Under the pieces are notes generated by a model that searched no databases, was not told the origin of the DNA, and worked only from the letters and a program-made list of their open reading frames with translations. DNA of 10,502 nt from Candidatus Heimdallarchaeota archaeon. GTDB lineage: Archaea; Asgardarchaeota; Heimdallarchaeia; Heimdallarchaeales; Heimdallarchaeaceae. Numbering within the stretch: position 1 is the first letter of the stretch; every line of letters begins with the position of its first letter. The position numbers were made by a program, and so were the translations under genes. Location: positions 1-10,502 of the forward strand of contig JAAFKI010000090.1 of NCBI GenBank assembly GCA_021399345.1. The letters run 5' to 3'. Shown one piece after another: positions 6,511 through 10,502 of the stretch.

Positions 6511-9500
6511 GTGAAAAATGCGACTTGGCTTTACAATATATTGTTATTAACTAGTATAGTTAGTGGAAGCATTCTTCTAATTAGTGATGAAATAGTAGCT
6601 AAGCCTGAGTTAAGCAATGTCTATAACAATGCCTCTTTGCCTCATGACATTGTTTTCGAATTTAATACCTCTGATTGCGAAGAAGTTTACAATTTACACT
6701 CAAATCTTCTTGAATTAGATGAACTCAACAAACTCACTCTTTCTTTTCAAGTAAATGGTAGGAGCGCTTCACCTGGATTACAAGTAGTTTTCATTCTTGA
6801 TACTGTTAGAGTTGAATTTACTATCGACCTAATCTTTAATGATGGAGCTATACACAATCTAACTGAAACTTTTCTTTTTCCTTACAATTATACAGGTAGT
6901 ATAGACATTACTGTCATTTGTACTGGTCGATCTACTTCTACAATAGATGGTTTTCTTACAATTCTTAACACCACTACAATAGAACAAATGAATATTCCCA
7001 CCATATCAGAAGATTCTTCTCTTCTTCCAATTTCTCAAGATTGGGTGATGTTTAGAGGTTATCTATTCTCTTGGAATACAGGAGGAATAACTTCTGCATT
7101 TCACAATTACAATGAAATAGATCTGGTAAGCCTTAATTTATCATTCTTCTCTAATTATCTTCAATCAGTAGAAAATTTAGTTAAAATCTCCTTAAATGGT
7201 ATCCTTATAGCAGAAGATTATTTTCTTGAAGATTCAAAAAATGACCTTAATATTCAGTTTAAACCAGAGATTGGTTTAAATCTTCTAACATTGAATTTTT
7301 CTGTTGCTTATACATCTCATTCAATCACTGTTTCAAATATCACTCTTTTTGGCTCTCTTTTTCATTATGAATCTAGCAGTTCTATTTTAGATTCATATAG
7401 TTGGGAAAGTGGTTTTTTTTCCTACTCTTTTGATTTATCTACGTTAAAACCCCCTGGGTACTATTCAGAACAAGTTCTTCACTTATCAATCAATTACCAA
7501 TGCTTCGGAATGAAAATCTCTTCAGGAATAAACTATTTTCTAAGAATAGGAACATCTATTCTCGAGGAAGGAACCATAAGCTATATTGATCAAATGTATG
7601 AAAGCAATAGTCTAAGAATTGAATCCTTTACAGAGGAATACTACAACTCTCTCTCGCTTATCATTCAAGGTTTTTCAAGTGGAGTAGGAGGACTTTTTAT
7701 TTTGAAATCAAGTACGATTGAAATTGCAAATATTAAGGAACTAACAAACCAACCTATGAGTAGATTGGTAGCAGATGAGAGAAATGTTGATGGTCCATCT
7801 ATTTCAACTATACTCAGCTTTTACGATGTAATTCAAACTACTAAGGGAATATCCTTTATAGAATTAGCAGTTAATTTCAATATTTTATCTGGTTATGAGC
7901 ATCCCTTTGATCTTTTAACTGTAACAGTTAAGATCAATGGTACGGCAGAACTTTCAAAAAATGTTTATGAACTCGGTTTTTTCAATTTCAGCAAAACCTT
8001 CTATTTATATGAAGGCTATCACGAGATTAAGATAAGTTTTCAATTTATTGCTATCAATACTCCACTCAAGTTAGAGCAATTAAAGTATCAAATAGCTCTA
8101 ATTGAGGAAGAAGTAATAAAATCATCAACCCCTTCTTATGCTCCCCATTCCTCTTTCTATCTTCTAGGTTTTTACGCTCTCCTCTACCTAATTCTAGATT
8201 TTAAAGAGTTATTTAGAGCAAGAATCAGAAGGAAAGAAACTGACGATGATAAGGATTCTACTGTAGTTGTATATGAAGATGGAGCTCGATTACGTACTAT
8301 TCTCGTGATCCCTATACATCTCACAATCTCTCTTGGTCCATTTTTTCTGTTTCAGTTGTTAGGTATTAGACAGTGGTTTATTTTTCCTCTAAGTCTTCTC
8401 ATAGCAATTCACTTTGGTGTCAAGATTCTTTTTTCAAATATTACCAAAGACACTTTTATTGAATTCTGGAAAAAAACTAAAGAGTTCTTTGAAGATATAT
8501 ACTCCCTCTCAGAGTTCATTTCTAATAGTGCAAGCTTATTCAGGAAACTCTCTTTCAAAAGCATGACTAAATTATTGGTTTTTCTAATAGCTTATCTAAA
8601 CTTTGGTCTGCTGTTTTTTTTGACAGATAACATCCCTTCAAATGCGGACAAAGGAGTTTGGAATTTGTATGCTCTAGTTTTAGCTGGCATATTCATCTCT
8701 TCTTCTACTTTATTCTATACTCTTCATTTTGTCAGAAACATGGCTTTTGTGGAAGACAATCTGAGAAGAATAAAGAGATTCGGTTATCTTTCTATTACCC
8801 TTACTATTGGTTTTTTGATCGTTCTTGTCAGTATGTTAGATACTAAACTTAGTTTGTCAAGTATTTGGGGTTTTCTTTCTCCTGTCCTCGTTGTTGGTAT
8901 CTTCCGTTCTACAGCGAAATTGGGGAAAATAGCAGCTAAAGAAGAAAAGCAATCTTATGATGATTTCTTGGATATAGGCAGATTCTTAACAGAAAAGAAA
9001 GAAATGCGTAAAGCTATTAGCTATGGAATAGTTACTCGTTCATCTTGGGAAAAGAAAAAATATGAACTACAGAGAAATCAAATAATAGGCGTTATCACCT
9101 ACGATTTGAACCCTGGTGATGAGATTCATTTGTTTGAGCTAGCTGAAAAAACCAACATTCAGATTGAGACTACAAAAAAGCTGATTCAAGAGATTGAAAC
9201 AACCATCCCTAAATTAGGAACATATGATTCTAAATCCAAAGTGTATGCTAAAAGTAAAAAAAATACTATAGAACCAGTGAACTCTTCAGAGAAAATTGTT
9301 CCAGATAAATATGAAGCTGAAGAAAAGAAAGTAGAGATGAGTAAAGAACCAAAAGAGAACATTTCTACAAAAGAGAGATTTCAACAGCTGTATGAGAAGA
9401 TTGCAGGAGAAAGTGTAGAAGAGAAGAAAAGAACTCTAGAATATGTTCATCATCTGACAACTAAAGAAGCAGAAGTATATCTAAAATTCTTGAAAAAAGG

Positions 9501-10502
9501 ACTGGGAGAACTGGAGGTAAGGTTAACTGATGTCGATATTGAGTTCCTTCAGAAGGCTATGAAAAAACTCAACAATAGCACTGATTCTCTCCAGAGAAAC
9601 CTTTCATCGAACCTATTGAAAGAGATATACGATTCTTTAGAAGATAGAACCCATGGTTTTGATGATGTTATTTTTGCTAAAAAGCAAGATAAGTTTAGTG
9701 TAATCTTCGCTGAGTATAAAGGGGGAGATTACGTGGCTTTACATCCTTGGGATTACATACCTAAAAAAGCCTACAACAAAAGAAGACTTGAACTAAATAA
9801 GAAACAGTTGCTTGATTTTATAGATGAAGGTGAGCTAAAAGATACTCCGATTAGCATTGCAATTAGAAATTTGAAGGGTTCAAAAGTTCCATTATTTATT
9901 TTCAAGTTGTATTATGACAGAAGTCGACAATATCATGGAATAGGTAATGATTGGTTAATAAAATTTAGAAACGGTGATTTTACTGAAGCAATGGGCATAT
10001 TAGTTAAGAATGGGATTTTATCTGAACAGAAATATAAGAGAATAATCAAAGGTTTGCTTGAACAGAATGAACTCATAGCTCTAGCACAAAATGGACATAT
10101 CGCTAGAAAATCAAAAAATGCAACTTTTACTTTACATGATAATACAAATATCAAATTTGATGGGGAAGATATAACCTTCTCTAACAGTTTCTTTATGCCA
10201 AAATTTGAGAAAAAAGGTCAAAATTTTGTTCTTTCACTACAGGGATTTTCAAGAAAACTTTCTGATAAAAAAGTAATAATACAAGGTTTAATTCCACAAG
10301 AAAAACTTAACAGAAAATATTCTGATGATGAGCTCCTTATTAGCTATGCAAGACTAAAACGTCAATTTTTAATGAATTTGTTCAGTACATCTAAGCTCAA
10401 TAATCTTGTTGATCTGGAAGATGGAAGAGCTAAATATGCTTTAGAAACTTTGGTTTCCAAAAATCTAAGTGATAGAATCTATGACTGGTTTGACAATTTT
10501 GA
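6511..10502 (+). CDS. Large (>1330 aa, 3'-truncated) receptor-like membrane protein: signal peptide, beta-sandwich ectodomain, ~7 TM, PCI-like winged helix, PD-(D/E)xK nuclease-like domain
   Basis: Manual translation of frame +1 is open from the stop at 6478-6480 to the window end, with the first start codon GTG at 6511 (MKNATWLYNILLLTSIVSGSILLISDEIVA...). It is absent from the ORF track because no stop falls inside the window. Seven hydrophobic segments lie at 8152-8904, the wHTH-like segment at 9115-9252, and HGFDDVIF...VIFAEYKGG at 9652-9726. The ORF itself is near-certain; the domain calls are less so. Confidence 0.85.
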   Translation, partial: MKNATWLYNILLLTSIVSGSILLISDEIVAKPELSNVYNNASLPHDIVFEFNTSDCEEVYNLHSNLLELDELNKLTLSFQVNGRSASPGLQVVFILDTVRVEFTIDLIFNDGAIHNLTETFLFPYNYTGSIDITVICTGRSTSTIDGFLTILNTTTIEQMNIPTISEDSSLLPISQDWVMFRGYLFSWNTGGITSAFHNYNEIDLVSLNLSFFSNYLQSVENLVKISLNGILIAEDYFLEDSKNDLNIQFKPEIGLNLLTLNFSVAYTSHSITVSNITLFGSLFHYESSSSILDSYSWESGFFSYSFDLSTLKPPGYYSEQVLHLSINYQCFGMKISSGINYFLRIGTSILEEGTISYIDQMYESNSLRIESFTEEYYNSLSLIIQGFSSGVGGLFILKSSTIEIANIKELTNQPMSRLVADERNVDGPSISTILSFYDVIQTTKGISFIELAVNFNILSGYEHPFDLLTVTVKINGTAELSKNVYELGFFNFSKTFYLYEGYHEIKISFQFIAINTPLKLEQLKYQIALIEEEVIKSSTPSYAPHSSFYLLGFYALLYLILDFKELFRARIRRKETDDDKDSTVVVYEDGARLRTILVIPIHLTISLGPFFLFQLLGIRQWFIFPLSLLIAIHFGVKILFSNITKDTFIEFWKKTKEFFEDIYSLSEFISNSASLFRKLSFKSMTKLLVFLIAYLNFGLLFFLTDNIPSNADKGVWNLYALVLAGIFISSSTLFYTLHFVRNMAFVEDNLRRIKRFGYLSITLTIGFLIVLVSMLDTKLSLSSIWGFLSPVLVVGIFRSTAKLGKIAAKEEKQSYDDFLDIGRFLTEKKEMRKAISYGIVTRSSWEKKKYELQRNQIIGVITYDLNPGDEIHLFELAEKTNIQIETTKKLIQEIETTIPKLGTYDSKSKVYAKSKKNTIEPVNSSEKIVPDKYEAEEKKVEMSKEPKENISTKERFQQLYEKIAGESVEEKKRTLEYVHHLTTKEAEVYLKFLKKGLGELEVRLTDVDIEFLQKAMKKLNNSTDSLQRNLSSNLLKEIYDSLEDRTHGFDDVIFAKKQDKFSVIFAEYKGGDYVALHPWDYIPKKAYNKRRLELNKKQLLDFIDEGELKDTPISIAIRNLKGSKVPLFIFKLYYDRSRQYHGIGNDWLIKFRNGDFTEAMGILVKNGILSEQKYKRIIKGLLEQNELIALAQNGHIARKSKNATFTLHDNTNIKFDGEDITFSNSFFMPKFEKKGQNFVLSLQGFSRKLSDKKVIIQGLIPQEKLNRKYSDDELLISYARLKRQFLMNLFSTSKLNNLVDLEDGRAKYALETLVSKNLSDRIYDWFDNF

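Follow-up and report, generated by a model that had tools for sequence, protein, structure and literature searches.

What could a protein do that joins a large ectodomain and seven membrane helices to a nuclease-like tail in a single polypeptide? The question is raised by an open reading frame (ORF) at the end of a contig from a Candidatus Heimdallarchaeota archaeon (GenBank assembly GCA_021399345.1, contig JAAFKI010000090.1, positions 1 to 10,502), the whole 10,502-nucleotide stretch being referred to here as the window. A sequence-only reading of the window proposed a signalling, antiviral or cell-death receptor that couples an extracellular cue to a cytoplasmic nuclease. Our comparison with relatives points instead to a site-specific homing endonuclease, directed against 16S rRNA genes with intron-less 3' ends and fused to a membrane module whose role is the more conjectural part of the proposal. 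We place the probability of this combined reading at about 60%.

Architecture and topology of the giant protein

The giant ORF and its parts, all on the forward strand, are:

6511..10500, +, giant ORF, the 5' 1330 codons of a membrane protein with a nuclease-like tail
6511..6600, +, signal peptide with a GTG start, seen in hydropathy, the same N-terminal stretch being present in relatives
6634..8100, +, ectodomain of four jelly-roll/CBM-like beta-sandwiches (residues ~42-151, 156-284, 292-407 and 416-530)
8149..8904, +, seven transmembrane (TM) helices, N-out/C-in, TM4-7 matching four-helix bundles
9037..9258, +, winged-helix domain, common to long family members with any tail type
9259..9537, +, charged linker, recognized from the sequence
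9538..10500, +, tail of the type here called class A, with a PD-(D/E)xK-type motif and then the start of a conserved ~600-aa region
9661-9663, 9712-9714 and 9718-9720, +, motif residues D1051, E1068 and K1070 of the class-A tail (G-F-D...(E/D)-x-K)

The frame is open at the contig end and full-length relatives have about 1650 residues, placing some 330 codons beyond the contig; a search of the same genome for the remainder found neither an overlapping contig nor an assembled 16S 3' end. The signal peptide, beta-rich ectodomain, seven TM helices and winged helix first read from the letters alone were all recovered, the ectodomain resolving into four jelly-roll domains, and the predicted topology agrees that the tail lies on the cytoplasmic side. 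All domains of the membrane-nuclease protein are under purifying selection, and the enrichment of N-x-S/T sequons is not significant for the giant protein taken alone. Seven helices are present, and the best fold matches are four-helix bundles for TM4-7; GPCRs and rhodopsins are absent from the top fold matches, and no sequence similarity to them was found. Foldseek matches to SIDT1, reelin and Cry toxin represent generic jelly-roll repeats (TM-score <0.2) and were not accepted as homology. Pfam and PADLOC gave no significant match for the giant protein or its tail, and the suspicion that the architecture belongs to no described family held up.

Class-A genes and small introns at the 3' ends of 16S genes

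Wherever the downstream flank is readable, class-A genes end ~100-175 bp from the 3' end of a 16S gene and are convergent with it, a linkage that holds in two genera and in metagenome contigs. At 12/12 distinct class-A loci the final 45 nt of 16S contain either one insert or two, each of 31-35 nt, distributed over three sites 14 nt apart, as against 2/8 loci without class A directly behind 16S, the other six being insert-free. On the first 17 loci (9 vs 8) this gives a Fisher p of 0.002, a value that overstates the association because loci of kin are not independent. Three of the 12 loci were fetched after the prediction had been made, and all three fitted it, including that of the closest relative, which has 81% DNA identity to the window. 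A contrast is also seen within genus g2, where G025 has both gene and intron and G029 neither.

The ends of the inserts match a bulge-helix-bulge (BHB) pattern that, on the basis of sequence and predicted folds, would yield the correct exon join: a 4-bp helix with 3-nt bulges does so at sites 1 and 3, and a relaxed version at site 2. Because splicing would restore the RNA, the inserts could protect the DNA only. In a search of RNA runs, none was listed as containing the stretch. An identical protein, P0004, is found with a site-1 insert or with a site-2 insert, as a long recognition site would allow. Like the genes of free-standing homing endonucleases, class A is optional and takes the same position next to a conserved gene, and in its carriers the presumptive target is altered in a manner that may protect it.

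The class-A tail as a candidate nuclease

The restriction-endonuclease-like motif that had been noticed in the tail proved to be conserved: its G, F, D and K are invariant in 18 sequences, the second acidic position is E or D, and these residues are predicted to lie on strands. The order of secondary-structure elements fits the alpha-beta-beta-beta-alpha-beta core of PD-(D/E)xK enzymes, with a low predicted local confidence score (pLDDT) in the catalytic region. HHalign comparisons of the tail with Mrr and Hjc profiles gave no informative match, and the positive control failed likewise; a PDB sequence search came back blank, and the Atlas lead was Mrr/NOV_C, at 0.80 only. The family of the catalytic domain is small (24 matches, including some repeat artefacts, in a set of 1.84 billion representatives), and includes soluble proteins of 700-1000 aa without any export signal and the C-terminus of one secreted giant of 4628 aa. 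Going by the conserved residues, the class-A tail is probably a DNA-cutting enzyme of the PD-(D/E)xK type. That it acts as a homing-type nuclease on the 16S end we consider likely, with catalysis and cut site deduced from motif and location.

The 4628-aa giant itself contains a TM cluster and is preceded by another giant gene (L087:4058-17941); the pair recalls aloposon gene pairs, and no tRNA was found in that stretch.

Exchange of tails and other sites

The ectodomain is present in 27/30 genomes of the same family and in 0/30 genomes searched from other families, and it occurs in three forms. In one it belongs to a one-TM protein of ~613 aa, mostly encoded in a conserved operon whose other genes include RadB-like, nuclease-motif and degenerate ATPase-like ones. 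In another it is combined with zinc-ribbon or RING-H2 tails. In the last it forms part of proteins of 1450-2500 aa in which a TM block and a winged helix precede one of at least seven tail types. The swapped C-terminal modules for which the sequence-only reading proposed to check homologs are present, and a variable, nuclease-like C-terminus on a shared N-terminal carrier is a feature of the family. Several tails bear G/S-x-D...E-x-K motifs, one class (class B) has two LAGLIDADG-like motifs and one tail a Vsr-like motif. Well-supported branches of the ectodomain tree call for at least two changes for class A and at least three for class B, and the class-B paralog from the window's own genome (G000) nests with strong support among class-A ectodomains. 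Likewise, the ectodomain of P0001 is closer to that of P0004 (70% vs 30-42%), whereas its tail is closer to those of P0005 and P0006 (51-56% vs 44% to P0004). These sequence relationships indicate that tails have been swapped between membrane modules. Broken and remnant copies are frequent: genes are split after TM1 in G023 and G013, and tail-only or 5'-truncated class-A genes lie beside 16S (G005, 632 aa; P0009, 908 aa).

Class B lies directly behind the stop codon of glmS, at 22-37 bp in three fused copies, and is present, or left as a remnant, at about half of the glmS loci read. It is free-standing in G030, G008 and G012 and fused to the membrane module in G000, G009, G010 and G016; the last glmS codons are highly variable. 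The safe site behind the glmS stop is also the attachment site of Tn7, but no transposase, ATPase or terminal repeats were seen at class B, where targeting is apparently achieved by a nuclease. In Heimdall-group relatives the swapped tails mostly adjoin conserved genes: other fused tails are found behind ABCE1 (2 genomes), an Asn/Asp-tRNA-synthetase-like gene (2) and PPDK (1), and further ones beside rpoA1, Csl4, Elp3 and RPL10e, the neighbouring genes being identified by sequence. G000 has no giant gene at these sites. It does contain a displaced ABCE1 3' end, set apart by a cargo gene (C184:38225-39938), as well as three different glmS 3' ends (C115, C130, C113) and displaced glmS 3' copies.

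Soluble kin of the nuclease-like domain occur at fumarate hydratase genes (5); proteins of 900-945 aa lie between the genes for the two subunits (L088:5925-8759, L089:5640-8354, L091:6113-8854), also in G000 (C146). Another soluble subfamily, of ~985 aa and with 28% identity to the PPDK-linked fused tail, is encoded head to head with a gene for an FTR1-like iron permease (L196-L198, L201).

Among the shorter paralogs, the operon of the 613-aa form (L046:4717-14762, also L050, L051, L059 and L060) holds two membrane proteins, the RadB-like protein, a 158-aa nuclease-motif protein and a 1039-aa degenerate ATPase-like protein, and is a candidate DNA-exchange system. A link between the TM-plus-winged-helix block and a 420-aa gene beside the short paralog was too weak to be accepted (probability 14%). 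Paralogs with ectodomain, one or several TM helices, zinc ribbon and RING-H2 finger (L048:6145-8859, L052:5270-7990, L053:3859-6558, L056:6032-8155) are candidate membrane ubiquitin ligases whose layout resembles that of eukaryotic ectodomain-TM-RING proteins.

A proposed mechanism and its alternatives

In the mechanism that we favor, the PD-(D/E)xK-type tail would cut the 3' end of intron-less 16S genes in the manner of a free-standing homing endonuclease, while the 16S gene adjoining it in the carrier would be spared, or at least marked, by the small splicing-type introns in the target stretch. Once donor DNA encounters an empty allele, repair of the break would draw on 16S homology at one side and, at the far side, on a short match. 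Such one-sided repair would bring in the intron-marked end of 16S together with the nuclease gene and cargo close to it, pushing the old 16S tail outwards and generating a cassette array like that in the window. Seven displaced tail copies have their starts 1-8 nt ahead of insert site 3, and their junctions vary, as expected from break repair and not from an integrase; the copies lend indirect support to copying by gene conversion; no transposase or integrase gene and no fixed junctions were seen in the loci examined. The module of signal peptide, ectodomain, TM helices and winged helix would keep the nuclease at the cytoplasmic face of the membrane and most likely couple cutting to cell contact or DNA import, a step suggested solely by the repeated fusion, the purifying selection and the operon in which the short paralog lies. 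Given a homing tail, the odds that the module gates or places the nuclease are about even. A wider and tentative generalization, which we think doubtful, is that Asgard archaea possess contact-gated gene drives, in which a surface-sensing module repeatedly captured site-specific nucleases of PD-(D/E)xK and LAGLIDADG types. Each would be aimed at a conserved gene and activated or placed only on cell contact or DNA exchange, spreading itself and its cargo without an integrase.

Several observations weigh against the homing interpretation. G004 and a contig of G016 have introns without class A, and 16S tails are also the location of a separate, short LAGLIDADG gene; hence the introns could stem from another enzyme or from co-conversion. 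The assembly does not include the 16S end belonging to the window, for which linkage and introns are deduced from relatives and tail copies. The fixed site of each tail class may in part reflect plain inheritance, and some tails lie at 5' ends or beside non-essential genes. Fold searches with a 630-aa model of the tail, poorly modelled in the catalytic region, gave nothing above background; structure and profile searches recovered no nuclease fold for it, and several other tails lack any motif that could be placed. Finally, split, truncated and free-standing forms sit at the same sites as fused ones, so the membrane module is not needed for occupancy of these sites.

The last point, together with the free-standing class B at glmS, the tail-only class-A genes and the genes split after TM1, is what would be expected if the tail were a conventional free-standing homing nuclease, translated from an internal start or released by cleavage, that had been joined in frame to a hitchhiking membrane gene whose ectodomain is unrelated to homing. 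Such passive fusion seems unlikely to us, as a single module is combined, by way of the winged helix, with seven or more tail types in different loci, and all domains are under purifying selection. A somewhat smaller chance attaches to the receptor of the sequence-only reading, in which an outside cue would switch on a non-specific nuclease and the 16S end would be just a hot spot of gene capture. Its receptor-like build, swappable outputs that include RING-H2 and zinc ribbons, and defence-like neighbours (an nSTAND NTPase and a type I restriction-like gene) speak for it; but it leaves unexplained why class A always comes first behind 16S, why introns accompany it without exception and why a LAGLIDADG-type paralog is linked to glmS. 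We do not favor it: the class-A tail is tied to one chromosomal position, which has a changed sequence where the gene is present, and a second tail class is free-standing at its own site. Moreover, no PADLOC model matches, no relative was found in viral contigs searched with one pattern, and the anticipated downstream immunity gene is missing, its place being taken by 16S, glmS, ABCE1, PPDK or a tRNA-synthetase-like gene. The module could nonetheless be a sensor, given that zinc-ribbon and RING-H2 outputs are found on paralogs.

It is also conceivable, at a lower probability, that the protein is a polymorphic toxin whose tail is delivered into neighbouring cells and cuts a conserved site there, introns or recoded gene ends providing immunity. 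G-F-D...E-x-K strings are typical of restriction-fold toxins, the tails are polymorphic and the 4628-aa secreted giant ends in the same domain; yet the topology places the tail in the producer's own cytoplasm, no immunity gene is present and soluble versions lack an export signal. Least probable, by a little, is a tail that binds the 16S end without cutting, either anchoring the chromosome or guiding a separate recombinase in the manner of TnsD in Tn7. The large conserved region behind the motif, a catalysis for which fold searches offer no proof, and the use of the Tn7 site by class B would suit such a tether or selector, whereas the invariant acidic and lysine residues with E/D interchange, the varying junctions and the lack of transposase or integrase genes in the loci examined would not.

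Relation to known systems and significance

Adhesion GPCRs, which are large-ectodomain 7TM proteins, and PA-TM-RING ligases share the N-out/C-in build with a large ectodomain, and RING-fused paralogs exist here too; a difference is that TM4-7 of the present protein match four-helix bundles, as described above. Closer in behaviour is the free-standing homing endonuclease F-CphI with the psbA intron of cyanophage S-PM2, which exemplifies collaborative homing (PMC6083498). Both systems show an optional, patchy and decaying nuclease gene beside a conserved gene, with an intron in the carrier's adjoining target. The Heimdall system differs in its setting (an archaeal chromosome rather than a phage), its rRNA target, its 31-35-nt BHB-type inserts at three sites and its ~650-aa PD-(D/E)xK-type tail, putatively cleaving and fused to ectodomain, 7TM and winged helix.

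In the same lineage, the homing-type nuclease of HeimM2 of Ca. Heimdallarchaeum has been proposed to be co-opted for site-specific integration, at the same site directly behind the only 16S gene and with cargo genes; neither membrane fusion nor a PD-(D/E)xK-type tail nor 3'-end introns came up in term searches of that paper (Wu et al. 2022, PMC8813620). As read from the locus in the complete genome G027, its nuclease differs in being a short soluble LAGLIDADG-like protein. In that genome (L174:8998-12628) a displaced 16S tail has behind it a LAGLIDADG-like gene of 206 aa and one for an 803-aa distant relative of the nuclease-like domain with the catalytic Glu replaced by Asn; the 16S end of G027 is insert-free. 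BHB introns, short hairpin-forming ones among them, are likewise known from Thermoproteales 16S genes, at 13 loci up to position 1391; the short ones lie at conserved positions and are spread by co-conversion when homing takes place close by (Jay and Inskeep 2015, PMC4496867). The nucleases there are intron-encoded LAGLIDADG enzymes (PMC4496867), whereas here the candidate lies outside the rRNA gene and is membrane-fused, and the inserts occupy the last 45 nt of 16S. Our literature searches, whose coverage left out most subscription journals, found no report of a homing endonuclease fused to a membrane ectodomain module and nothing relevant on Heimdall transmembrane nucleases or Asgard DNA-transfer systems.

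If the proposal is right, cell-surface sensing is tied to selfish gene conversion in archaea closely related to eukaryotes, and active DNA exchange between these cells is implied. It would also give a testable explanation of why rRNA genes contain mini-introns that lack an ORF, account for integrase-free cassette arrays behind 16S and other core genes, and provide a set of undescribed long-site nucleases with predictable targets. Common 16S reverse primers bind in or next to the insert region, so carriers may be missed in amplicon surveys.

Displaced 16S tails and cargo in the window

The remaining features of the window are:

7..129, -, displaced copy of the last 16S bases and the whole trailer, which over 122 nt has 94% identity to the 16S trailer of a relative
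218..1765, +, cargo, gene for a secreted subtilase (S8)
1819..1857, -, partial copy of the 16S trailer
1917..3329, -, cargo, gene for a secreted protein that has CarboxypepD_reg domains
3422..3466, -, second displaced copy, 16S tail and first trailer hairpin
3469..4386, -, cargo, 305-aa protein with no function assigned, its stop abutting the displaced 16S-tail copy
4383..5192, -, cargo, 269-aa membrane protein with no function assigned
5241..6398, -, NosD-like beta-helix gene, divergent from the giant ORF, with a homolog in the same place in several relatives

The 16S-tail copies proper lie at 105-129 and 3442-3466, and none was obtained in 200 shuffles. As there are two displaced tails, one with its entire trailer, the window is most likely a cassette array behind a 16S gene, with the giant gene in first position. 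The 305-aa cargo protein has no Pfam or PADLOC match. Arrays behind 16S in other loci repeatedly contain genes of ~530 aa that resemble one another at the N-terminus and in some cases stand in tandem (L168:456-5992, L178:7161-10656, L167:1163-2752, L176:478-2073).

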